From: Massalongia carnosa
Taxonomy: Eukaryota
NCBI GenBank assembly: GCA_965645245.1
Contig: OZ287077.1
Coordinates: forward strand, 744,001-808,000
Direction: 5' to 3'
Length of the DNA stretch: 64,000 bases
Within the stretch, counting starts at the first letter, position 1; each line of letters opens with the position of its first letter. Below, one piece after another: positions 2,666 through 60,987 of the stretch. The notes beneath the pieces were generated by a model. That model saw nothing but the letters and a program-made list of their open reading frames with translations. It was not told where the DNA came from and did no database searches. The translations under genes and the position numbers were made by a program.

Positions 2666-4859
2666 CTATGGGAATACAAGGACGTTATGAGCCCAATCAA
2701 ACCACCACACTATCTCCCCTTGTAACGGCCTGTTTTGCCATGATTTATCATATCTTGCCGCTGTTCTGCTGACGGGAAACATGATACCGCGGACTGAGCG
2801 TACAGGACAAGTAGGAGGATCGACGTTGAAGTATATGTGTGTCGACTGACCGTGACGGAATGGGGCGCAGTCTATGCTGAAATCCCAGCGCCATTGCCCG
2901 ATAGATTCGCAAGATTGGTCGGCGTAATGGATTAATAGTCCGATGTACGATCTTATCTTCTTGGACGGGTCTCTACATCTCTCTACCTTTGTGATGTTAC
3001 AAAGTGAAGCCTTCGAGACGTACCAATCATATAAGCGGATGCGAGATGAGAGGCTGGGCATAGTAAGCCTCTTTGGAGGTATAAACAGCGCATCTGGGTC
3101 ATGCTCTGAGTTGCATATAACGCCGAGATTGTTAATGGTGTTCCGTTCAGGCCCGATCTCATTGCAGCAGATGCCTGAAACAACACCATCCAAGTCCGTA
3201 TTCAGGGGTAACAAGGAATGTTCGGGATAGCGAAGGGAATCAAAATATGAGCCGGTTTGAAAGGATCTTCCATAGGTTGTACAGAACTAAATAAGTTATT
3301 TTAAGCGGCCGCATAGGCCAATTCGGAAGATTTTCTTACAGCGATTTCGATCTCCCCAAATAGGCGCTCGCGATCATTAATTATCCAGACCTGTGACACA
3401 CGCTCCCCTTCTCGAAGAGGAATGTAAAAGCACTGAATAGGAACAACGAAATAAGTTTGATCCTCGTAAATTGGTACGATATCAGCCCCATCGTACCAGG
3501 CGTGCAATTTAAGAAGCCGGCGTTTACCCTTTGCCATAATTATCCCCTTTATTCCTTGTTCAAGGGGTATCCATTTCATTCGCATAGGATAATCGGATTT
3601 TTTGGAACAGGGGGTATGATGGCATCGCATTGGATCGAATACTGGCGGGTTAGGGGTGTCCCATTCAAGGATTTGCTTAAACCCAGGGTGGGGCAAGGGT
3701 TTAGGAAACATGTTAACGTTTCGAAGAAGGAGATCCTGTTCAGAGTCAGCATACAGCACAATACAAATAGGAATGGGTAGCCTGCGTCTGAAACACTTCG
3801 AATCTCCGTGATGGCAGAGTTATCAGGAACCTGGATCATTTTGTACCAGAGACGGGTCTTTGAATTGGAGTTTTGCTGCTTTGTGACGGAAACCTCCCCT
3901 TGGCCGAGAAATTCAATCTCTTGTATGCCTATATTATCTAACGAGAGCCTAAGTGTGTGTGTCGTGGATGACCGATGAACTTTCTTGTCCGTGGGCGACA
4001 GGCGTTGATTGCTCAGATATGATACATAATATAAGCCGTCTAGGAAGACTCTTCCAATGAAAACCGGCTCCAACAAGCCCAGTGTAACGGGTCTATTATA
4101 AGCAGCTTCTAGAGTCGCAAGGTCATAAATCTCTCTAATGAGAGGCCCACTTGCGTAGAGTACCACAGCTGGCGAGAATAGAGTACTAGACCAGACCTCC
4201 TCTATAATCATATATTGGAGTTCTACCGGCAACTCCGAACAGCGACAATATAACCCCAAAGCAGAGCTGGGAGTCAAACGCTCCGAGGTTGGGGAGGTCA
4301 AATGCTCCTTCTTTAGGACATCATATATCATTTTGTTTGATAATGCCAAGGAAACGAGAGCAGTCCTACGCTCTTCAAATGACTTTGTTGGAACGTACCC
4401 TGATAACGGGAGCGTCGACCTTCCAAACTTCCATACATCCATCATACTTAAACGAAATAGATCATCAGGGTGGTTGTGATGATCTCGCTGTAAAAGCCTG
4501 TAACAGCCTACGTGTATGCACAGCGCTAGGTAACGGCGATGTCGGTGATGGCGTTTCTGATGAGAACACGACCGAATTACTATGGAAACAGGTTTCTTCC
4601 TTCCCACATGGTCCCAAACGTCTAGCACCCGAGATTCTTGGCCCTCATGAGCTGATACAAGAAAGGAACCAGTTTGGCCAAGATATCGGTCAGTGCCTAC
4701 CACTGCATACAAGGTCAGCACTTTCAAGGTATGCATGCTTGATGAACCTTGACCTGCAGCCACCTCCACACTGCCGCTAGAGTCGCTCGCATTGTAGAGC
4801 GGTCCCCGGCATAATACACATTGATCATACTCAATATCGAAGATCGTCTTTCCAATCAT
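2666..4859 (-). CDS. Hypothetical protein, about 696 aa, 3 exons, with an F-box-like LPVELQYMI segment
   Basis: ORFs 3576-4859, 3301-3759 and 2666-3214 join in phase 0 through introns 3736-3785 (GC-AG) and 3287-3339 (GT-AG); N-terminal CVLC motif. Confidence 0.65.
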
Positions 4860-45021: not shown

Positions 45022-46050
45022 TATATTTTATAATCTTGGATATAGTCTTTATTTGTCAGTGCTGAGCACGGAGTGGAGGGTGGTTTCATTTTGGATAGAA
45101 TCTTTGACGTCAATTGGAGAAGGGGGCGCAAGCGACCAAGTGTGCATATATGGAATTGACAGTGAGGTAAATAAGCCGCATTTTGATTTTGAGTTCTATT
45201 TGGGAAGTGCAGGCGATATTCTACGATCCAATGACGGCGAAATGTGGGGTTTTATATTTTATGTAAATTTTAATTGAACTCCTGCCAAAGTCTTCAATAT
45301 CCCGCAGGCAAAGCAACCTTTTCAATTTTCTCTCAATAGGGGCTTCACTGAATTCAGCAAAGAATTTTTGGTGCTCGGTACAAATCATAGACTCTCGAAA
45401 TGAAGTCATGACATGACCGGAACTAATCTCCTAACCGCTTCCCAACTCCGGTCGGCGAAATGTCTATTCAGGGATAATTTGTTATAAATAGAAAACTTGG
45501 TCCGAGTGGTTATGGCGCAACATTTGGAAATCCTCGGCCGTTCAACGGAGATACTCAAAACCCTTTCTCAAGTATGAACAAATCAAAATCCAACTCGGGG
45601 TAATGACGAGATTAGTTAGGGATAAATTATCCAATGTCGGCTAACAGGATATGCAGCAAAATCCCAGGAAAGGTTAAGTTAAGCTTTAGTGAAATCCATG
45701 CAGGAGAGAGAAAATCTACCACCCTATCATTAGGCTAGCGCTAACAGGAATCGAATATTGAAAATGAAATAGAGGTAATCGTGCCACACCACCAGTAATC
45801 GTTTTCGCTTACTAATCGTCGGCTAGTCGCTCGCTTAATCCTCTCCCTCCAAGAAGCATTCGCTTCTAGTCGGGGAAAGCAAACTTCGTAGGAAAGCGAA
45901 GCTTCGTAGGCTCGCACGCGGGGGACAAAAAAAAAACTACACCAAAATTTAACCGGGTTCAACCCCCCACCAAAACACAAGCAATTTCCATACAATTTTG
46001 ATGGGATAATCACCATTTCAACAACCAGTCATCCAATTCATTCAATCTAT

Positions 46051-47136
46051 TCAATAACCAGTCATTTTACCCTCACCATCCAAAACAGCTCTCAATCTAT
46101 CTGGCATAGTAGACACCCGTTCATTGATAAATGCCTGGGAAACGTTCGCCCACCCCTCATAAATTAGCCCCTTGGTCGTATCATCATCCCAATGAGGATA
46201 TTTTTTTAAATATTGCTTCGGGGCCTGCCAGCAAGTTTCTATGGGGGCCAAATCAGGTGAACATGGACAGTTGAAATAGTGCTTCAGATCGTTGTTCTGC
46301 TTCCAAGTGCGTACAATGTTTGATTTGCCTGGTCCATGTCCAGAATCACCGTCTTCTTCTAAGACGAAATCGTGTTTTGCTTCAATCCAGGGCTTCACAA
46401 TAGGCTCCAATATAGAGTCGATATAGACTCGTTGACTCATCTTTCCATTGGAGTTTCCAGGAACTCTGTAAAAGTAGATATCTGACTTGAAGTCATGACC
46501 TGCAGCAGCCCAACAGTGATGTCTCTTCTTGACGGCCTCGTCTGGTTCATCTGCTTCTTGAATACAATCATGACAATAACGTTCACCTAATCTTCGTATG
46601 ATGCGTAATTTGCCCTGAGGTCCCCATCCAAAGTGCACTTCGTCACTAAATCGAACTTGTTTCCAGTCTTCTGCATTTGGATATCTAGAAAGCATAGCAT
46701 CTGACCACTTCATACGAAGCTTTCTTGTCTTCTCGTTCACCCATCCCTTTCTGCACGCAATGCATTTGTGATAATCCATGGTGCTCATGATTCGTTGAAT
46801 GGTTTTGCCACTGCAGTCTAGGCCTACTTCGAAGCCCAATTGCTCCCATGTAAGAGCGCGCGCCTCCATACCTTCTTCTTCCAATAGCCGTTCCATTTCT
46901 CTAATCAATTTAGGCGTAACAATTTTGTGACGCCCACGAGCTTCAGAAACATCGGAATTATTATGATGACGGCGTGATGAGGCTCCTTCACGCAGGTATG
47001 CATAGCCCCTCGTACGTTCCACATCAAATGTGCGAAAAACATCCTCTTTGTGATAAGAAATGCCTTGCTTTTCGCAAAATTCAACGGCTCCCTGAATTTT
47101 AGCTTTGGTAGGAGTCTCGATATGTTTAGAATTCAT
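46051..47136 (-). CDS. Tc1/IS630-superfamily transposase of element C, 361 aa, intact, DD37E
   Basis: MNSKHIETPTK...; FSDEVHF, LEEDGDSGHG, SPDLAPIETCW; 37 residues between the second D and the E. Confidence 0.92.
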   Translation of the reverse strand: MNSKHIETPTKAKIQGAVEFCEKQGISYHKEDVFRTFDVERTRGYAYLREGASSRRHHNNSDVSEARGRHKIVTPKLIREMERLLEEEGMEARALTWEQLGFEVGLDCSGKTIQRIMSTMDYHKCIACRKGWVNEKTRKLRMKWSDAMLSRYPNAEDWKQVRFSDEVHFGWGPQGKLRIIRRLGERYCHDCIQEADEPDEAVKKRHHCWAAAGHDFKSDIYFYRVPGNSNGKMSQRVYIDSILEPIVKPWIEAKHDFVLEEDGDSGHGPGKSNIVRTWKQNNDLKHYFNCPCSPDLAPIETCWQAPKQYLKKYPHWDDDTTKGLIYEGWANVSQAFINERVSTMPDRLRAVLDGEGKMTGY

Positions 47137-47145
47137 AATAATGAT

Positions 47146-49392
47146 TGATTGATTGATTGATTTATTCTTATTCCGATATGACACCGGCCGAAGGCCGGCC
47201 CATGCGGGCTGTCTATGTTTATCATACAAGGAAAACCCTTCTTGGGAATAAAAACCCCGTAGACTACGCACTACCTCCGGAGCCTCGCTGGCAACAGGCT
47301 GCTCTCTGTGATCGTTTTTCTTTAGAATCCTTGACGAAAATGAGAAGTTATATCTCGTATAACATTTGCGATGCTAGTGAGAACTGTGTTAACAAGTTTG
47401 CTTTTATTATCCATGCAGTTAGCTTTTTCAGCATTTTCGACGAACGCGTAATCGTCCGGTAGTCGTGGGTGCCCAATTGTCTGAGCAGCTCATATCTGCC
47501 TTCGATTAGTCTGCAGTGTAATATGATGTGTTTGGCAGTCTGTTTCTGCCAGCCACACGAGCAAGCTGGAGTCATAGCTCCCGGAACCCGACGATTGAAC
47601 AGGAAGTTTGCCAAACCTATTTTCTCAGTGCGGATTTGCGTGGTTAGCGCGCTTTCCGCCTTCATCAAGTTGTCATGAATCTTCAATCTAGTTCTGTTGA
47701 GTGGTCCGAGCTGTGCCTCTGTTGGGTAGGGAACGCGGTCCTGATACGCCTTCCACCTGGTCTCCCAACGCTCCTTGATTCGTACTGTAATGGTCTTTGC
47801 GTGCTTTCCGATAATTCGGCGTGCCGTGATGTATTTCTCGAGACGGACAGGGTCGGGTCCTGACCAGGGTCGGGGCGGCGGCGGTATTGCGGCTGGGGCT
47901 TCGTTGTTTAGCATCTTGCTGGCCCATTCGTGTTTTAAATCTCCTAGGGTGGGGCGTTGTATTCTTTTGCGTCCTGCCTTGCCTCGTAGCTTGTTCGCTA
48001 TTGTGCTGCAGGCAGTGGTGATCAGTTTCGCTTGCCCTGAGGCCCGTAGGCGGTATCTTGCTTTCATCTGCAGATGATCCAAGTGTAGCTCCATAGGGGC
48101 GATGAAAGTTTCCGCTTCGAGAACCTCGACGGGTGTTGCTTTAAACGCTCCTGCCACAGTGCGTAGGCATTTGTTCTGCATGACACTGAGTTTGGACATC
48201 GTGGCCTTGTTTTTCTTGATTTCCTTGGGCGTGTGCCACACGGCGCTTCCGTATGTCATTGCCGGGCGGACGACGGAGGTGTAGACCTGCCGGGCCTTTG
48301 CGAAGGATGCTCCCCAGGTGGATGCCGAGATTTTTGTGAGCGCTAGCGACTGCGACGTCATCTTTTCCTGCGTCTTCCGTATATGAGCTCCCCATTTTAG
48401 TTTTGTGTCGATTTGTAGGCCCAGTACTCTTATGTCCGTTTTTGGTTCAATCAGATTGGTTTCAATTTGAATAGTGGCCGTCATGTTGAATTTCTTTGGA
48501 TTTCTTGACAAATGAATGAGTTCATATTTATCCGGTGCAAATACGGAGCCATGCCGTGTCGCCCACAATTCGCATTTCCTGTGAATTCTTTCAAGAGTTC
48601 TGCAATTTTCTTCCGTGCTTTTACCGTATGCCAACACGTTTACGTCGTCTACGAATCCCAGCGCACTCGTGTTCGTGCCGGGTCTCTGGCATATCTCTAA
48701 TAGGTCCGCGTTGTAGAACAGATACAGAATAGGGGAAATGGGCGAGCCTTGAGGAATGCCCGTGCGCACTGCGAACTCCCCGGTTGCTCGCCGATTTATT
48801 GCTAATGTGGTTTTCCTATTCTCCAGAAAGCTTGCTGTCCAGTCTGTGATCCATTTCGGAATTTTCCTTTTCCGTAGATTGTGTATTAGCCTACGGTGAG
48901 ACACCGTGTCAAACGCACCTGCCACATCCATGCTGAGTAGGGTTGCCACCTTGTCGTTGCCTTGTCCCCATACGGTGTATACCTGTTCTGTGAGAAGCTC
49001 GAGTGCGGACTCGGTGGATCGCCCTCGCCGAGCACCCATTTGCGTGTCGGGCAAGAGCCGATGCTGTTCCGCTATGTGGGTGATTTTCTTTGCGATGACC
49101 GCTTCTAGAACTTTACCCATTGTGTTCAGGAGAGCTATGGGCCGATATGCCTTTGGGCTGGTGTTGTCTTTCTTTCCCGGTTTTTTGAGCGTTATCGTGT
49201 TCGCTCTTTTGAACTCGCGAGGATGATACGCTTGCGTGACGCACGCCTGAAATAAAGGGGTTAGCAATTCTGCTAGCTTTGTAGAGCATGCCTTGAGGAT
49301 TTTGTTGGTGATCCCGTCAGGACCCGGAGCCTTGTCGGACTTGAGGCATTGTATGTTTGCGATCACTTCGTTCTTTGTGATCATCATGGGAC
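47146..49392 (-). mobile_element. LINE1: 5'-truncated Tad1-like non-LTR retrotransposon inside element C
   Basis: 13-bp TSD TCATAATAATGAT at 47133-47145 and 49393-49405; (AATC)n tail; 3' hairpin motif at 47182-47208. Confidence 0.94.
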
Positions 49393-49396
49393 TCAT
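47348..49396 (-). CDS. Endonuclease-less LINE reverse transcriptase ORF, 682 aa, uninterrupted
   Basis: KAPGPDG, YRPIALLN, DVAGAFD, GIPQGSPISP, FVDD and C-terminal CSCG..H..C; ATG supplied by the upstream TSD copy. Confidence 0.88.
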   Translation of the reverse strand: MSPMMITKNEVIANIQCLKSDKAPGPDGITNKILKACSTKLAELLTPLFQACVTQAYHPREFKRANTITLKKPGKKDNTSPKAYRPIALLNTMGKVLEAVIAKKITHIAEQHRLLPDTQMGARRGRSTESALELLTEQVYTVWGQGNDKVATLLSMDVAGAFDTVSHRRLIHNLRKRKIPKWITDWTASFLENRKTTLAINRRATGEFAVRTGIPQGSPISPILYLFYNADLLEICQRPGTNTSALGFVDDVNVLAYGKSTEENCRTLERIHRKCELWATRHGSVFAPDKYELIHLSRNPKKFNMTATIQIETNLIEPKTDIRVLGLQIDTKLKWGAHIRKTQEKMTSQSLALTKISASTWGASFAKARQVYTSVVRPAMTYGSAVWHTPKEIKKNKATMSKLSVMQNKCLRTVAGAFKATPVEVLEAETFIAPMELHLDHLQMKARYRLRASGQAKLITTACSTIANKLRGKAGRKRIQRPTLGDLKHEWASKMLNNEAPAAIPPPPRPWSGPDPVRLEKYITARRIIGKHAKTITVRIKERWETRWKAYQDRVPYPTEAQLGPLNRTRLKIHDNLMKAESALTTQIRTEKIGLANFLFNRRVPGAMTPACSCGWQKQTAKHIILHCRLIEGRYELLRQLGTHDYRTITRSSKMLKKLTAWIIKANLLTQFSLASQMLYEI

Positions 49397-49640
49397 AATA
49401 ATGATAATTATCCCATCAAAATCGTATGTAAATTGCTTGTGTTTTGGTGGGGAGTTGAGCCCGGTTAAATTTTGGTGTAGTTTTTTTTTTGTCCCCCGCG
49501 TGGCTCGCAACGTTAAACCACCACCACATCACTAAAGCACCACCACATCATTTAAATTACTATTACATTTACTATCACATTATTATTTATTATCATATCG
49601 TTAAATTACTATTGCCGCTTTAATAAAGAGCTGAAACCTA

Positions 49641-51509
49641 CAGAGGCGAATCTCAAAAGTAATGATAATACGCTAAAGACTAGCGCCGTAATTTAGATTT
49701 TCCATACCGAGCCTGAAATTCTACCAACTATCTACAAATGCCATTACCAACCATCTAATCAACGTCTTTTTGGTCTGAAACTGGCTGCAGTACGAATAAC
49801 CTTCTGAATGCGTGGGGGAAGGTGATTTTTCGGAGATAAAACGGCTCTTTTTCTCAATAAGGGGGGTGTCAATGGCTTCTGTGTAGGGGGCTCAGGGGTA
49901 ACTGCCCTGACATTCAACGGGCTGGGTGTATCATCATTTGATTGTCTGGATGATGGTCTCGTTGACGCCACAGAAGAAGAAGAAGAAGAAGAAGAAGAAG
50001 CTGGTTTTGCTGTATTACTGAGCAATTCTTCCCTCAGCTGTTGAAGTCGCATTTTTCCTTCTTTGGTCCGTCCATCAACGTCCAAACGTCCTTCGCAATA
50101 CTCATTTCCACCTTCCAATTCAATGACTTTTGCAATGTGACGTGGAATTCTTTCAATCCATGCCTGAATATTCTCCTGAGGTAGATCGTCCCAAGTGCGA
50201 TGCCACATAGATTCAGCAATTAACCGAGAACTAGGAGGACCTTTGGCAGTTGTACGTCGCTTCATCCAGGGCCAGCAGGGTTCAATCATGTTGAGATCAG
50301 GAGAATTTCCGGGCCATAAAAGACGCTCGATGCCATGACGAGAGAAGATGGGAATCTGATGCTTGGAAGCATGAGACGGAGCCTTATCTTCCTGTACGAT
50401 CATTTCAGACAATCCGGCTTCTCTTCTTTTTGCATTGCATTGCTGAGCAAAAGGAATCAGTTTTGGCAGAAGTATAACGTTTTGATACCGCCACCAATCA
50501 ATGCCTCCTTTACCTTCTTTTCTGATCATCTTTCCATGTTCCTCATCCCATTTCCATTGCGGCTTTTTTCCTGGTAAATTGCGAGTTGAAAGACGTCTCA
50601 TTCCATTGGTCAGCTCCCAATTTAATCTCTCACTGGCTTCCAATGCAGCATTCATCTCGTCAAGCTTGGTTTTGGCTTCCGCTTTTTCCGCTTTTGTCTC
50701 CGGTTTCCAGCAATGACATGGCCCCTTCCAATCGTAGGAAAAGCATCCCCAAAACATGAATTCATGAGCCCCATGCCACCTAGCACGTACGGTGGATTTG
50801 ACTGGTCTTCTTCCTTCCTTGGTTGTACGCCAAATTTTGACAGCTCCGCGACGGTGACCAAGCACTATTGCTATTTCATCTGACCAAATAACCCGCTTCC
50901 AATCCTCCACGGTCCAGTCTTTATACAGGAGACAAAAAGCCAGTCTAGCCGCTTTCATTTCAGGAGTAAGCCCTGGTCTATACGACGGTTTGACTTTTAT
51001 AGCCTCTTTGTTTCAGGATTCTCCACACGGTGCATCTGGACAGTCCAACTTCTCTTGCCAACTGGGCACTGGTTTTTTCACGGGCGTATCTGTCTTTTAT
51101 GACTAGATCAATGACTTCATCTTCTTTCTCAGTAGTAGCCTTTCTCGGTCGACCAGATTTTTCTTCATGACGGGCGTATTTATCAAGCACCTGCAAAGAA
51201 ATGGCGGGATCAAATCCTCGATCCCTGGCAATGCGACGAATACGATAAATGTTGGGGACAGAATAACCTGTAGTAGCTGCAATAAATTCAATTGAGGCCG
51301 GGGTGCAATAAGACAACGTCAAGACCTGAGCCCGCAAAGAAGTATCAGCTGATTTATTGACCATGATGATGATTTGATCAAATGTTGGTTCGTAAATGAT
51401 TTGGGATGAGAAAAGGGGAAAGAAAAGGGGAAAATTTGCTCGGTACGGAAAATTTAAATTACGGCACTAGCTTTTAGCGTATTATCATTACTTTTGAGAT
51501 TCGCCTCTG
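49641..51509 (-). mobile_element. Element D: Tc1-like DD34E transposon, 1869 bp, 72-bp TIRs, TA TSD
   Basis: TIR CAGAGGCGAATCTCAAAAGTAATG... at 49641-49712 and 51438-51509; TA at 49639-49640 and 51510-51511. Confidence 0.95.
49759..51364 (-). pseudogene. Transposase of element D, split by one frameshift near 50995
   Basis: HTH part is ORF 50978-51364 (SGRPRK); catalytic part is ORF 49759-50958 (WSDE, QEDKAPSH, SPDLNMIE). Confidence 0.85.
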
Positions 51510-53083
51510 TAGTAATATCCTAATTGTTCTTGTACATCATTGTCAGACTCGTTGCCTCCATCAGTATCGTCTTCATCAAACGGCAGAAAATCTCTTTGCA
51601 AAGAAGAATCACCTGTAACATCTGTGATGAATGTTGTCTCCGCCTCATCTTCATCTTCATATTCATTATATACTTGAGATTTAGTCTTTTTCGCTTTCTT
51701 TCTCTCTTCTTCTTGCCAAGTAACATCTGTTGCCTTCCAAATTGCTTCGGGATCGGGAATAGGAATAAGATGCTCGGAGGAAATAGCAAGATCTTGTTTT
51801 GAAAGCTCTTTAATTTGTCGTAAACGGTTTCTTTCTTGCTTTCGAGCAATCACTCCTTCGGCATATTTGGCGTCTCTTTCCATACGCCAAATCTTCATCC
51901 ATGTCTGATGCTGCTTCTTTGCTTCTGTTTCTTTAGCTTGTTTTTCCTTTGCTGCAATCATCTCCTCAGCATTCTCTTTAGTAAGCCCTAATCCTGAACC
52001 TAAGGTTCGTAATCGCTTACGAGAGGTAGATTTCTGTTTTAAGTCATCTTCTCTTCTTTTCTGATATATAGATAATTGAATATCATTAAACGTAGCTTGT
52101 GTACAAACGGTTTTTGTATTATTAACAAACGACTCAAATTGCTCTGAGCGAGCCGGATCACTCCACAACATTCCTTGTTGAATTTTCTTCTGCCATGTTT
52201 GAAGTCCTATTTCAACATCCATTGAGGATGTTGGCTGAATATGAGGCAAGATTGGAAGAGTAGGCTCTTTTTCTTTATTGTGTAGCTTTTCTTGAGCATC
52301 AGGCGGCTTGAAAGTTTTAAGCAATGAGATGCAGTTTTTAGCATTAACAGGCCACATTCCTGATTTCTCAAAAGCACTTCGAATAGTATATTTCTTGAAA
52401 GTATTATCACGTATCTTACTAAGATCAGCAAGAAATCGCTGTAATGTATACTCAACATTGAATTCCAGTAGAGCATCTTGAATTGCCATATCATGCCAGT
52501 GTTTATAAGGTTGAAATACTCCAACATCAAGCGGCTGCATACAGTGTGTAAGATGCGGTATAAGCGGATAAGGACGAATGTGATTTATATTAGCAAGAGC
52601 TATGAGCTCAGTAGTACAATGACTGCCATGATTATCCATGAGCATTATTTTCCAGTCTGCTTCTGGTCCAGAGTCTGAATGATCAATATAATGCTGAAGA
52701 AACACCTGTGCTATCTTGTCAGAGGTAAATCCGTTTTCTGAAGGTATAATTCGAGTTCCCTTTGGCAGCTCTTTTGAAAACCAGTCCATCATGATTTCAT
52801 GTCCTTGTATAAGAATTAAAGGTGGTGGAGGATAGTCGCCCGCTGCATTGATGCATTCAAATGTCGTGAGAGATTTACGATTTTCAGGACTTGATTTGAT
52901 TTGATTATTCTTACGCCGTTGTGTCACCGGCCGAAGGCCGGCCCATGCGGGAGATGCTATATAAGCTATGTAATAAGTAGAAAACCCAAAGGTGAAAAAC
53001 TACTCCTGCGTATCCGCTTCATCGGGGGTTCGCTGCTCCCGCGGATTGATTCCTGTATCTCGAAAATCTGCGATACCTGTTTT

Positions 53084-56000
53084 TCAAACTGAAGAGAGAC
53101 TGCCCGGCTGCTGTTCAAGCAGTTGCGTGGCAATGGAATACTGTGTTAAAATACCTGTGCGCATGAGCCACGCGGTTACTACTTTGAGAGCTTTGGGTTC
53201 GGTGATTAGCTTGCGGTAGTCTGACGAGCCTGCCGTTCGTAGCATGTGCGTTCTGTGTTCGTGCAGTCTGCAGAACATGATTACATGTTTGGCTGTTTGT
53301 AAGAGGCTTCCGCAGGGACATGCCGCCGAGTTCACACCTGGGACCTTGCGCCGATATAGAAAGTTGGCCAGTCCGATTTTTTCCGTTCTTATCTGTGCTG
53401 CTAGTGAGCTTTGCGCTTTGTCTAGTAACTTGTGTGCGTTAAGCCTTTTCCTGTGTATAGGCGCCTGTTGTGCGATCGTGGGATATAACGTGTGTTTTGC
53501 TTGATATGCTTTCCACTTGTTGATCCACTGATTCTCAAAGTGCTTCTTTATTATCCCGTCTCGTTGGTTCTGCGTCGTTACTTGCGCTGTGCGTTGTCTC
53601 TTCTGTGCCTCGTCGATCGTTGTCCAGGGAGGGGGAGAGGGTTGATCCAGTTTAACTGTTTTCGGTGCATCTTTCGTCATCTTTGTTACCCATTCTCGTT
53701 TACGAGTTCCCGGTGTTTTCTCTGCGACTCGCGATTGACCTCTTTTGCCTCTGAGTTTCACTTGAATTCTATTGCACGCCTGCTTTATAATTTTTTCCTG
53801 TTCGCTGTTCGAGATTCTGGATCTCGTTTTTGCTTGTAAGCGGTCTAGATGTCGCGTTAAGGGAGGGATGTGGGTTTCTGCCTGTAATACTTCAATTGGG
53901 GTAGCCTTGTACGCTCCGGCTATGACTCGTAAACACTTGTTTTGTATGACTTCGAGTTTGCTTCTTGATTCGACTTTGGCTTTCTTTCTTGCTTCGGCTG
54001 GCATGTGCCATGCTATCGAGCCGTGCGACATGGCGGGGCGTATCACTGCTGTGTACACGTGGCGGGCTCGTAGGAGGGTCGCCCCCCAGGTTGAGGCTGC
54101 GATTTTGGTCAGTGCCATTGTTTGTCTCGTCATTTTCTTCTGAATTTCCTTGTAATGCGCTGCCCAATCGAGTCTAGTGTCAATGTATACTCCCAGGACT
54201 CTTATCGAAGTCTTGGTCTTCAGGATCTTGCCTCTTACCGCGAAGGATGCGTCCAGGTTGAATTTCTTTGGATTCTTTGCCAGGTGTATCAGCTCGTATT
54301 TGTGTGGCGCGAATACGGAGCCGTGGCGAGCGGCCCATCGTTCGCAGTCGTTGTGTATTTTTTCCAGCGTTTTGCAATTCTCTTCGGTGGACTTTCCGTA
54401 CGCCAGTATATTGACGTCGTCTACGAAACCCATGCCCGCTGCGTTGGTACCTGGTCTATTGCAAATATCGAGTAAGTCTGCATTATAAAAGAGATATAGA
54501 ATGGGAGACAAAGGAGATCCTTGCGGAATTCCTATATTCAGCTGGAATGCGTTGGTTGTTCGTTGATTGATAGTGAGAGTGGTTTCTCTTTCCTTGAGGA
54601 AGCTTTCTGTTCATTTCGTGATCCATTCCGGAATTTTTCTCTTTCTCAGATTATGAATGAGCCTACGATGTGAAACCGTATCGAAGGCGCCTGAGACGTC
54701 GATACTAAGAAGCGATGCTACTTTGTCTTTCCCTTGATTCCAGACCGTGTGTACCTGCTCCGTGAGTAGTTCGAGCGCTGTGTCCGTTGCGCGGCCTGGT
54801 CTTGCTCCCATTTGCGTGTCTGGAATTAATCTGAGTTTTTCCGTTAAATAGCTTATTTTCCTTGCTATAATGGATTCTAGCATTTTTCCAAGCGTGTTTA
54901 GGAGCGCAATGGGTCTCCACGCCTTAGGATCCGCGTAATTACTCTTTCCTGGTTTCTTCAGCGTGATGGTGTTAGCGGTTTTGAACGCTCGAGGATGATA
55001 ACCCTGCTCTGCGCAGGCCTGGAACAGTGGTGTCAGCAACTTGATCAGATTTTCCGAGCATGCCTTGAGAATTCTATTTGTGATCCCGTCTGGACCGGGT
55101 GCCTTGTCTGGTTTCGACCTACGAAGCGCTGCCGCCACTTCTTCTTTCGTGATCAAGATGGGGCAGTCTGGGGTTTGCGGGTACGTGAATCCTACGATGT
55201 CGCTGAGATCTGCGTCCGGGGGTAGGGGGAAGAAAGATTTCTTTAGCATTTTCGCTTTCTCTTCGAAGGTATTGGCTATCGTATCAGGGTCCTGGGTTGT
55301 GGCCAGGGGGGGCATTTTTGGGATTTCTCTGGGGGCGTCACTTTTGTTTTTACCCCACTTTGCTAGACGGAAGAGTCCGGATTGGGAAGTTGTGATTGTG
55401 GCTATTTGCTGTTTGAAGCAGAGATTTTTTGCTTTACCGATAATTTTTTGTTTCTTATCGTTTGCTTTAACGTAGTTTTTCCAATCCGCTAGGTTTCTTT
55501 CCGCGGTCCAGATTCTTCGTAGCCTACGAGTCTCCCTTGTTGCGTCGTCGCATTCCTTATTCCAAAAGGGTTTCGCCTCCGGGCTTGGTCTGGCCCATGG
55601 TACTGCTTTATCTACGATTTCCTTGAGGTAATCCTGGATTTCCTTGGTATATTGATCGATTTCCTCGATGCTGTGCGGCATGCGTGGTGCGGGGGTTCTT
55701 TTCTCGATTTCTTTTACCTTGTCCATGTTTAGAAGTTTCCAGGCCCTTCGTGGGAGCTTTGTCAGGGGTTCGCAGGAGAGCCGCAGTCTCGTTGAAATCG
55801 GTATGTGATCGGAATCTTGATTCATCTCCGGGACCGTGGTGCAGTGTTCCAATCTCTCCGTTAAATCTTCTGTCATGAACACCAGATCAATGGTGCTGGT
55901 CGAGTTTCTTGCTTCCCATGTAATTGTTCCTCTTGGAAGTGAGAGAGAGATTTTTGTTTTCTATAATGTCCAGCAGTTGTTCGGACGCCTCGTGCTGTCC

Positions 56001-56489
56001 TCGTACCCCTGCTCCACCCCAGTATGGGTGATGGAGATTGAAGTCTCCTAGAAGAATATGCTCTCCGGGGTCTTGTAATTGGTGTAATACGGTCGATAGG
56101 GTGGACGGGCTAGTTATCGAGGAAGTGGATAAGGGCGATGGATTGTATACGTTGTGTATGTGAATCATTTTTGTTCCGTTTCCGATTTTTACTTTTATTT
56201 TCAATGTGCTCATATCCTTTGACGGGTATTCCACTTCCCAGCTTTCTGGGTCTATTTTGTTATTGATATAAAAGCAAACTCGCGTGTCGCCCCCTGGTTT
56301 ATAAAGAAGATGGAACCCCCTTTGATAGGGGTTAAGAAGTAGGGACGTCGTAGGGTTTTTCCACGGTTCTTGAATAGCTATGATGTCGAAATCCTGTGTT
56401 CTTTTATCTGACAGCAAGGGTATCAGTGTGCCTTTTGCACTTTTTCTGACATTGTACTGCAGTATCGTAAGGGTTTCTGTGTTCTTCAT
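53084..56489 (-). pseudogene. LINE2 ORF2: APE endonuclease, reverse transcriptase and CCHC tail, disrupted
   Basis: ILQYNV, IAIQEP, GDFNLHH, SDHIP; frameshift near 55935; TGA at 54611-54613 where LINE1 has Trp; FVDD; no RNase H motif seen. Confidence 0.92.
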
Positions 56490-58122
56490 AGCATTCTTTC
56501 GTTGAGTTGTATCTCGTTGGTGTTTCTTGCTCTAGTTATCGGACGTCCTCTTTTCGGTTTGGCGAAGACCGACTCTCTGTTTTCTGGGTTCATTATTTTT
56601 GCCCTCGTCGACCCCCATTCTTCCCTCCCTCGTAGAATCCTCCGTTCTTGTGCTTCTTGTGGTGATAACGAGCGCGACCGAGTGACTCTCAGTTCTCTAA
56701 TTGATCTCGCACTTTCTTTTCTCTTACTTATCTTATCGTCTTCGTAGTTTCTGTCATTTCCACTTCGTTTTCCGCCTCTTCTCCTTCCTGCGGCTCCACC
56801 TCGTTGGTAATGTGTGTCGATGGGAACTCGTTTTGTGAGGCGTCGGTGGGTTTGTTTGATTGGTGTTGTTGATTCCCATGACCTGCTTCGGTTTCGTCCT
56901 CGACTACGACTTCCATACGCCCCCCCTGCGCTTGGCTGAGGATTGCTTTATTTCCTTTGGGTGGGGGCGGCACTGCGTACAAGCGCCGGCGTGATTCTCT
57001 TGTGATTTCCGTGCGGTGTTTTTTCTCTTTCCTGACTTGGCATTCCGCTGCCCACGCTGGGTGTCCCTTGTCCCCGCACACTGCGCATCGTAGGGACCTT
57101 CCGGTTCTGCTGCATGGGCAGTTTCTGCTGTCGTGCCTTCCGACGCAGTACCCGCAGACGGTGGGATTTTTGCAAAACTTCGCGATGTTTCCGTATTGCT
57201 GACAATTGAAGCATTGCGTGAGCTTGCAGCCGGCTTCGAAGAGCTCGCATGTTTTTATTTCCCCTTCGTCCGCCAGTCCTACGAGGATCAAACGATTGGC
57301 CATTTCTGCAGTTTCTACCTCGATGTGTAACGAGGCGTAGCGCTTGTTTTGTTTGCGGGCTCTGGCGCTCCAGGCTACTCGATTGATTTTCAGTCCTTCA
57401 TGCAATCCTGCGTTTTCCTTTGTCAAGTATTCCAATGCTTTCGCTTGCTTTGACCCTCTGACTTCGTTCATTTTTACTCCGTGAGCTAGAATTGCATAGC
57501 CTTCTTTACGTATCGTCGCTGATGCAGCAACTCTCTTTATCCATTCCGAGTGTGCTTGCAAGGTTTCCTTGACTTCCGGTGTTTTTACGTGAATTTTTAG
57601 ATCTCCACTTGGTAGTCGTCGGATGCCCGTCACCTCTTCGTTAGAGACTCGTAGGGCGTCTACTATTTCCTTTGTGGTCTTTTTACCTAGGGCTTCCTGC
57701 TCCTTGGGGTCTTCTATTCTCACTATGATTTCCTTCATTTTTCTCTTCTCTCTGAGGGTGTTTTCCTCGTTGAGGCCTTGATTCTTCACTTCGGTTTCCT
57801 GTCCGCTTTTACGCTTTCCTGCTGCGACCGCCGCGTAGCTGAGAGCCTTGCCGTTATTCTCGCCCTGTTTTTCTATCTTCTTCAATCTTTGCTGAATATC
57901 CTGCAATGTATCTTGAAAATTTTCCTGCGTCGACACGTCGAGCGCGTCGCGTTCCGATGAAGTTTTTTCTATGAACTCAACAAGATCGAGTATCCAACGC
58001 CTCGCCTCCGCGCCGGCTACAATCACATCTGCTCTTTCCAGAAATTCTCTTGCTTTGCTTGTTAGCTCGTGAGTTTCACTTATCTCTTGCCCTTTGGCGT
58101 CGACACTCGTTGTCGTATTCAT
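56486..58122 (-). CDS. LINE2 ORF1, gag-like with three zinc knuckles; probable 1-nt frameshift near 56748
   Basis: CFNCQQYGNIAKFC, CGYCVGRHDSRNC, CAVCGDKGHPAWAAEC; open to 56728, with an alternative frame continuing to a TGA that overlaps the ORF2 ATG. Confidence 0.85.
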
Positions 58123-59115: not shown

Positions 59116-60987
59116 GTGCCCAACGGCTCAAAGACCAAAACGGTTCAAAGACCAAATTAACTATGTATGGTCAATTTGACTACGAAAAGCCTTCCACCAT
59201 TTGGTCCTTTCAACCTCCCATTTTTTACGTGCTCGGAGGAAGGTATTGGCCTCACGAAACAGTCCTTTCCAGAGCTTCTTTTCGGCGTTGTCGATGTCCT
59301 GTTGTTTTTTCAACGCGGCCGCTTTAGCTCGGTCCAAGGCCTTCTGTGCCTTTTCCACCTCATCTTCATTTCGTTTGGTGACTTTAGCACGTACGTCTCG
59401 AACGGTGATGACCCCACCTGACTGAGCAACAGTTCCAGCAAGCTTTTTACGCGCCGCCTTAGCAATTGAGGCTTTAGCTGAGGTCAATAAGTCCCTTTCG
59501 GCCAACTGCTGAGCATGAGCGCTGGCCATAGCACCTTTGAAAAAGCGATCGACATGCAATTTATAATCTCCGCCGACAGCATCATTTGTCTGCATGCTTC
59601 TTTGAAGTTTAGTGCCAAAGATGATGACCTCAGTGAAAGTGCGAGGTGTTCTGGCCAATAATGGGGCCGATGGTGGGGGTGGAGGGGTAGTTGGCCTTTG
59701 ACGAATTTGCGCCTCGATTTTCGAAATGACCACATTTGGATTATAAGGCACTAGTCCTGTGTTCCTGAATGCAGCTAAAATCGTCGATTTGGTGAATGTT
59801 TTGAAGCGCATATCCTGAAAATCGACAAAAAGTCAATCTTGCTGAACTCCCCTGCTCCGGCACGAATAGCCTCATCAATGGCCTCAGCATGGTAATGTTT
59901 GAACGGCCGAAAGCATCCAACGTCCAGTGGTTGGGTCAGATGAGTTGAATGAGCAGGTAATCTGAATAATTCGATGTGCTTGCTCTGTGCATACTCGAAA
60001 AATTCATACGTCATATGAGATCCATATCCGTCCAAAATCAACAACCTCCATGCACCAATTTGCCCTTTTGCACTATGTTTATGAAAATGTCTCAACCAGT
60101 CAATAGCGAGGTCATCATTTGAATAACCCGTTGGACTGACGGCGAAAAGAATGTCATCATCCAAATCATTCTCCAGGGCCCATTTCTCCTTGATTTGTAC
60201 GCCAGGAAGTATGATCATGGGGGGAATATCCCTCCCTCCACCACTAATACTCTCCACCGAGGTGATGTAGTCTCTGTTGTCTGGATCCGTCATCAAAAGA
60301 GGCTTATGGGAATGAGTCGAAATCACCCAATGAGCTCTTCCACAGCCAATTCGAAAGCCCGTTTCATCCATGTTCCAGGTGTCCTCGTCCACGATTCCTC
60401 TCAACTCTCGAAGGGCCTTGTACTGCTGAAAATGCTTCATCATACTCTCCGAATCGTGCGACTGTTTACGCTCAACAGCAAGAGGTTTTTGTTTACGTTT
60501 GAAGTACTCCGGATGACGTTTTAAAAATCGTCTGGTCCACATGGCGCTTACGATAGGAAGTGGAGAGTCGGTATGATCACGATCTGTTTGTCCAACTAAT
60601 GCTCGACCGAGCAGATAATTAGCAGCTCCACGAACCATCGAGAGCTTAGCTGATTGTTCCATATGATCCAATCGCTCAATGTAAGCACAAATAGCCCTTT
60701 CTTGTGCATTCGTAAGTGCTTTGTTGCTTGGTGAACGAGTTAATTTGGAATCCCCTCCATTAAGCCTTCGACGAAGTGTCCTCGAATCGACGTGAAATTC
60801 TCGAGCAACAGCGCTGGCACTAGAATAATCACCATTGTTATACGCGCTGATGGCCTCATCAAGACGATTTTCAGAGTCCCAGAACGAATCAGTCATGGTG
60901 GTGTGGAATAGGCAAGCGTTTGGTGAAGGATGAAATAAATAGTTAATTTGGTCTTTGAACCGTTTTGGACTTTGAGCCGTTGGGCAC
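59116..60987 (-). mobile_element. Element E: pogo/Fot1-type DNA transposon, 1872 bp, 49-bp TIRs, TA TSD
   Basis: TIR GTGCCCAACGGCTCAAAGACCAAAACGGTTCAAAGACCAAATTAACTAT (1 mismatch, internal direct repeat); TA at 59114-59115 and 60988-60989. Confidence 0.95.
59161..60896 (-). pseudogene. pogo/Fot1 transposase of element E, with a 1-nt frameshift near 59820
   Basis: HTH N-terminus; WNMDETGFRIG, LDGYGSH, QPLDVGCF; continues in ORF 59161-59811 (AAFRNTGLVPYNP). Confidence 0.9.

Follow-up and report, generated by a model that had tools for sequence, protein, structure and literature searches.

A truncated LINE across the transposase start codon of a Tc1-like DNA transposon in Massalongia carnosa: very probably a recent one-off insertion and not a working hybrid element

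"Dead-on-arrival" copies of long interspersed nuclear elements (LINEs) that lie nested in other transposable elements are 5'-truncated within ORF2, keep a complete 3' untranslated region (UTR) and tail, and are bordered by a target site duplication (TSD) of variable length at an AT-rich site; the tail repeat shows microhomology to the target's nicked end, and many sibling copies are truncated elsewhere. LINE reverse transcriptases (RTs) that lack endonuclease activity can insert at pre-existing DNA breaks, and this endonuclease-independent L1 retrotransposition was assayed with full-length L1 elements with ORF1p, their native promoter and a point-mutated endonuclease in repair-deficient cells. 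According to the respective reports, a non-long terminal repeat (non-LTR) retrotransposon lies inside a DNA transposon with terminal inverted repeats (TIRs) in the Tx1L/Tx1D composite of Xenopus laevis (PMC1950540), while MER6/MER6A is a Mariner-derived MITE (miniature inverted-repeat transposable element) with a V-SINE domain that was amplified in mammals (PMC6887750). Here we analyse a LINE fragment inside a Tc1-like DNA transposon, termed element C, in a stretch of 64,000 nucleotides from Massalongia carnosa (the window; GenBank assembly GCA_965645245.1, contig OZ287077.1, positions 744,001 to 808,000 of the forward strand; all coordinates below count from the first letter of the window). 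The original prediction for this locus was a hybrid, in which a TIR promoter could express an endonuclease-less RT and the whole unit could move by cut-and-paste. This proposal gained no support from our analysis, and we consider it highly probable that we are dealing with an ordinary, very recent and singular nested insertion rather than with a functional hybrid.

Element C occupies 45915-49502 on the minus strand, running from 49502 to 45915, as delimited by its TIR pair and the TSD that flanks it. Its size of 3,588 bp agrees with the 3.6 kb predicted; the start formerly placed at 46051 left out one TIR. Both TIRs are present as proposed, the 5' TIR at 49400-49502 and the 3' TIR at 45915-46017 (both minus strand; pair I1, 103 nt, 94% complementary), and the element is flanked by 5-bp TSD copies, GCTCG on the plus strand at 45910-45914 and GCTCG at 49503-49507. 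Four runs were compared as Logan contigs, which drop rare variants, so that neither the presence or absence of a junction nor a copy number is readable from them. Where contigs join the two flanks of C, they show a single copy of GCTCG (joints 45901>49505 and 45908>49502; loose ends 45916 and 49502). Subtraction of the LINE and one 13-nt copy of its TSD leaves 1,328 bp, and P0015, from another copy of C, represents the uninterrupted form, in which the TIR-encoded peptide runs directly into MNSKHIETPT. The 90% transposase cluster of C has 42 members. Single contigs of run X1 show depths of 150 for the flank, ~5,800 for C and ~2,700-4,700 for the LINE, a hint of tens of copies, depth not being copy number. 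C is an active DNA transposon of 1.33 kb and ~40 copies, and no second copy was found elsewhere within the 64-kb window.

The insert is a 5'-truncated LINE fragment of 2,247 bp on the minus strand (47146-49392), recognised by its identity to residues 441-1120 of P0031, a full-length LINE protein of 1120 aa. It is bracketed exactly by an exact 13-nt direct repeat, TCATAATAATGAT on the plus strand, whose copies at 47133-47145 and 49393-49405 (family D4) are 100% identical. The downstream copy holds the transposase's own ATG and the upstream copy holds the ATG that opens the RT open reading frame (ORF); the proposed insertion across the transposase start codon, with a 13-bp TSD that duplicated the ATG, is thus confirmed. 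Since by our own estimate ~0.1 exact 13-mer pairs are expected by chance in the whole 4 kb, and far fewer at both borders of the LINE, we regard the TSD as real. The 5' limit at 49392 was set independently by the P0031 alignment, which begins at residue 441, and at this position contigs diverge from the window into upstream LINE sequence, with a loose end in 4/4 runs. We set the 3' limit by comparison with a second LINE in the window, whose 3' end (52891-52951) is matched at 85% by 47149-47208. Within the 202-nt 3' UTR (47146-47347, minus strand) lie AATAAA, a (TCAA)n tail whose last nucleotide is 47146, and a GC-rich hairpin motif that is also found conserved in the second LINE; the fold energy of the 3' end is not exceptional (z -1.68 and -1.00). 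With an RT domain, a TSD of variable length, a 3' tail and neither LTR nor TIR of its own, and with an N-terminal apurinic-like endonuclease in the full-length sibling P0031, the insert is to be classed, on sequence grounds, as a non-LTR retrotransposon of the apurinic/apyrimidinic endonuclease (APE) type.

From the duplicated ATG at 49396 an ORF of 682 aa extends on the minus strand (47348-49396; 720 aa if read from a TTG at 49510). Its product would start with M-S-P and continue with LINE residue 441 onward. RVT_1 is its only Pfam domain (residues 75-329, E 2.9e-31); the ORF carries an FVDD box, and a C-terminal CCHC motif of the form C-x-C-x8-H-x4-C was read by eye. The stop-free RT plus CCHC frame without endonuclease is therefore present as described, and two details of that description need adjustment. 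The ATG is in frame, but it is separated by 4 nt from the inner end of the TIR arm, on the inward side, and by ~107 nt from the tip of the element, instead of lying about 10 nt inside the TIR. Likewise, the LINE is truncated ahead of the RT domain, but not just before it: the break falls in codon 440/441 of 1120, 72 residues before the Pfam RT match, and has removed the endonuclease and the linker.

The RT ORF is identical in 680/680 amino acids to residues 441-1120 of P0031, which is recorded on 3 large contigs, apparently of the same assembly, and comprises an endonuclease at residues 10-232 (Exo_endo_phos 10-229, Exo_endo_phos_2 109-232) and an RT at 513-767. High-depth contigs of the family cover 47181-49392 in run X1 and 47184-49284 in run X2 with 0 other letters in the listed pieces, and partial variants at 47624 and 47627 are the only contig differences recorded in the LINE part. 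Two LINE protein clusters, of 19 and 10 members, include many truncation points; most members are 97-100% identical to P0031, and full-length ORFs of 1120 aa among the listed members are P0031, P0153, P0155 and P0163. The LINE family is active and young, and the RT frame has stayed open because the insert is itself young and has not diverged from its active full-length relatives, and with zero divergence there is nothing for selection to act on and the ratio of non-synonymous to synonymous substitution rates (dN/dS) is undefined. An in-frame join arises by chance one time in three, as conceded from the outset. Read-through from flanking DNA into truncated LINEs is common in this genome: 6/24 compared LINE-cluster proteins begin with non-LINE residues of this kind (P0158, P0161, P0162, P0168, P0169 and P0173), two of these extensions being short (4 and 7 residues). 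On other contigs of the same assembly, P0162, P0169 and P0173 show 68, 261 and 32 non-LINE residues, respectively, in frame into truncated LINE copies.

The anatomy of the insert, taken together with established knowledge of LINE integration, suggests the following course of target-primed reverse transcription (TPRT). A single copy of C would have received a single dead-on-arrival, 5'-truncated copy from an active APE-type LINE family. The AT-rich sequence surrounding the start codon of the transposase would have been nicked by the LINE endonuclease, and by pairing with the AUCA repeat in the tail of the LINE RNA the freed 3' end (...TGAT) could have primed reverse transcription. Synthesis of cDNA would have halted at ORF2 codon 440/441, and second-strand repair would have duplicated 13 nt, including the ATG, with which the ORF2 frame would have come into phase by chance. 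All the features of nested dead-on-arrival LINEs listed at the beginning recur here, and nothing essential sets the locus apart; its one peculiarity is an in-phase join behind a start codon that belongs to the TSD, so that the transposon ATG heads an RT-only ORF of 682 aa.

We further propose that the insertion affected the host element. The 5' TIR of C presumably carries a promoter, as suggested by the position of the ATG immediately inside its inner end, and presumably also provides the 5' UTR of the transposase. If so, the RT ORF now comes first and the transposase second, and autonomy was probably lost as a consequence: the transposase ORF would be a distal cistron, 2.26 kb behind any TIR promoter. 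Both TIRs are kept, and transposases of sibling elements could in principle move this copy of C. The 5' TIR also contains, at ~49415-49407 on the minus strand, a two-codon upstream ORF (ATG GGA TAA) that precedes the main ATG by ~10 nt; as part of the TIR leader it is probably a feature of the C family.

If the chimera were mobile as a unit, the original prediction expected further copies of C with the LINE at the identical junction, and none were found in cluster proteins, in metagenome contigs or in junction-peptide searches. The junction ORF P0161, the 720-aa version identical to the window, is recorded on 1 contig of 2.3 Mb, and 0/14 other listed members of its 19-member cluster have the TIR-encoded N-terminus. 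The 40-nt junction has 0 exact matches in metagenome contigs. Searches of cluster representatives with 70-residue and shorter junction peptides returned only P0031 and P0174, both via their LINE part, and P0174 carries native upstream LINE sequence. P0151 (679 aa, with an MMITKNEV start, on another contig) was considered as a second chimera and set aside, since a stop or truncation just before residue 442 of an ordinary copy explains its start equally well. In the four runs, no contig bridging 49392/49393 or 47145/47146 is listed, Logan contigs being prone to drop rare variants. As far as searched in the listed cluster proteins, in metagenome contigs and with junction peptides, an incomplete test, the junction was found at a single locus, which on the side of uniqueness is the outcome that the original prediction named as speaking against the hybrid.

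The host element carries its own marks. The transposase ORF of this copy of C (46051-47136, minus strand) has the full length of 361 aa that was claimed for it, but it carries two private non-synonymous letters of the C backbone, at 46785 (G118S) and 46235 (N301T). Among 14 other listed cluster members, residue 118 is G in 10/10 and residue 301 is N in 7/7 covering sequences, and the transposase with both changes, P0001, is recorded on 1 contig. In the alignment to Sleeping Beauty, N301 falls on the N of PIEN, adjoining the catalytic E, and on this basis the transposase may be impaired by N301T. At 46235 and 46785 every contig in all 4 runs shows the family letter, while a variant at 46466 of ~18% depth was retained in X2 contigs. 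Since a variant of this depth was kept and the private letters are absent, a lineage with this backbone makes up no sizeable share of the C family.

Among the alternatives, a functional class I/class II composite fares best, yet we regard it as improbable. According to this explanation, the TIR promoter expresses the endonuclease-less RT and the 3.6-kb unit is cut and pasted by its own second-cistron transposase or by the transposases of its ~40 siblings, or else full-length LINEs act in trans to retrotranspose a TIR-driven transcript that stops at the LINE 3' end. The structure itself speaks for it, with both TIRs and their TSD, an in-frame ATG, a complete RT domain and an intact LINE 3' UTR, AATAAA and tail. 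Moreover, both families look active, and the MER6 report gives a precedent for a retroelement piece that spread inside a Mariner-derived MITE (PMC6887750). MER6 resembles the locus in having a class I fragment between Tc1/mariner-type TIRs, the route envisaged by the original prediction, but it is a short, non-coding, many-copy MITE, whereas the composite in C is 3.6 kb long, coding and, as far as seen, single-copy.

The evidence of the preceding paragraphs argues against a functional composite. Cluster, metagenome-contig and junction-peptide searches yielded no second copy of the junction, the private letters of C are missing from the contigs of the four runs even though the minor variant at 46466 was kept in X2, N301T adjoins the catalytic E, and the complete identity of the RT to active relatives leaves no selection to be read. 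In addition, second cistrons are poorly translated in eukaryotes. The insert also differs from the elements used in the endonuclease-independent L1 assays, since it is devoid of ORF1, 5' UTR, endonuclease and a 208-residue linker, and nothing at this locus points to endonuclease-independent insertion. The predicted RT-only protein would be missing ORF1, endonuclease and native 5' UTR; its production and use gained no support. It also appears unlikely that the LINE fragment has acquired a promoter from C, with transcription from the 103-nt TIR, translation of the 682-aa RT and an end at the LINE AATAAA and tail, such that it could be retrotransposed in trans by full-length siblings while the 3.6-kb unit could also be moved by ~40 sibling transposases. 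If this were true, one locus would be open to both transposition routes.

Some points weigh against our preferred interpretation of a one-off insertion. In the cluster of P0161, 15/19 members were listed. The figure for P0161 counts contigs and not loci, and it would not reveal a second copy if this lay on the same contig of 2.3 Mb. The absence of the junction from the runs is limited by the loss of rare variants from Logan contigs. In structural terms the chimera is competent, with both TIRs, the 5-bp TSD and the FVDD box of the RT, and the ATG at 49396 is the first start of a long ORF behind the TIR.

An assembly artefact, in which reads of LINE and C were wrongly joined in a repeat-rich region, is very unlikely. 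Both partners are multi-copy repeats, and neither junction is bridged by any listed Logan contig. However, the borders of an exact 13-nt TSD coincide with a complete LINE 3' tail on one side and a clean 5' truncation point on the other, which makes misassembly unlikely because this is the signature of TPRT and not of a false join. Furthermore, the gene call P0161 comes from a contig of 2.3 Mb, and a missing bridge is expected, since single-copy variants of a repeat with 40 copies are lost from Logan contigs. Least credible, and largely refuted, is a site-specific LINE that targets the start region of C, with a recurrent composite of the Tx1L-in-Tx1D type: insertion exactly at the transposon's start codon would fit it, but the TIR-encoded leader occurs in 1/15 listed members of a cluster of 19, the truncated copies P0162, P0169 and P0173 read through from unrelated flanks, a different sequence abuts the related LINE of the window at 52891 onward, the X1 contig of depth 5811 that carries the 5' region of the transposase goes on for 56 letters that disagree with the LINE side of the junction at 47132, and the TIR of P0015 is continuous with the transposase start. 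Tx1L/Tx1D shares with C the position of a non-LTR retrotransposon within a TIR-bearing DNA transposon, while Tx1L is site-specific and its composite recurrent; here one junction was found, and other LINE copies have unrelated flanks (PMC1950540).

Element C is itself nested in another multi-copy element, B (45806-45914 and 49503 to ~51100), so that the nesting order is LINE in C in B. Contig depth rises ~80-fold at 45806. The DDE_3 transposase of B has 399 aa here and 535 aa in the cluster representative P0017, and a search between 45600-45916 and 49503-53500 revealed no TIRs of B. One X1 contig that joins the flanks of C without C has a depth of 149.8, compared to 150.1 for the unique flank. 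Such C-less joins are most simply other copies of B; they could be an unfilled allele of this locus in the same sample. Run X3, from a differently labelled organism and another study, matches C and the LINE with 99-100% identity in stretches several hundred bases long; it also has the unique flank 45448-45733, and its LINE contig departs at 47326, inside the 3' UTR.

The second LINE of the window (52891-58122, minus strand) belongs to another family, with an RT 69% identical to that of the first. The coding sequence for its endonuclease and RT is broken up into several ORFs (55887-56489 for the endonuclease; 54611-55876 for the start of the RT). It ends in a tail of short, ATCAA-like repeats, and the GC-rich hairpin motif that it has in common with the first LINE lies just before this tail. 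The region from ~45.8 to 61 kb of the window is a transposon cluster with DDE_3, DDE_1 and the second LINE, and it includes two transposase ORFs of the pogo/Fot1 type (DDE_1) at 51488-52792 and 59775-60896, one of them with HTH_Tnp_Tc5.

The enzyme of C is a Tc1-like DD37E transposase. It matches DDE_3 with 31.0 bits (cut-off 28.6), and HTH_Tnp_Tc3_2 scores 26.3 bits against a curated cut-off of 31.5. Its alignment to the catalytic domain of Sleeping Beauty SB100X (E 8.7e-05) pairs DGDSGH with DNDPKH and SPDLAPIENCW with SPDLNPIENLW, and the spacing between D262 and E300 is 37. Canonical Tc1/mariner elements duplicate TA at the target. C instead duplicates the 5 bp GCTCG, the unfilled form of which was seen in contigs. 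Relatives of the C transposase were found at 7 metagenome loci, none of them from this species and the best with 54% identity. This 54%-identical relative, L001, a 1,411-bp element on a metagenome contig, also has a 5-bp TSD, CTTAT at 2732-2736 and 4148-4152, and shares with C the termini CACGCGGG. On the strength of these two elements only, C is Tc1-like in its enzyme and should not be filed as a canonical Tc1/mariner member. Among the papers listed by our literature search, titles and abstract openings held no obvious description of 5-bp TSDs in Tc1-like elements.

In its present form the locus is of little importance beyond being a clean textbook case of nested TPRT, in a genome in which the LINE and the DNA transposon families are both currently active. 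The long open RT frame behind a transposon ATG can be explained without selection. Evidence that the chimera is transcribed or copied would turn it into a rare live case of a retroelement fragment that gained a promoter and a second mobility route from a DNA transposon. Element C itself, with a Tc1-like DD37E enzyme and 5-bp instead of TA duplications, may be the more useful by-product of this analysis.

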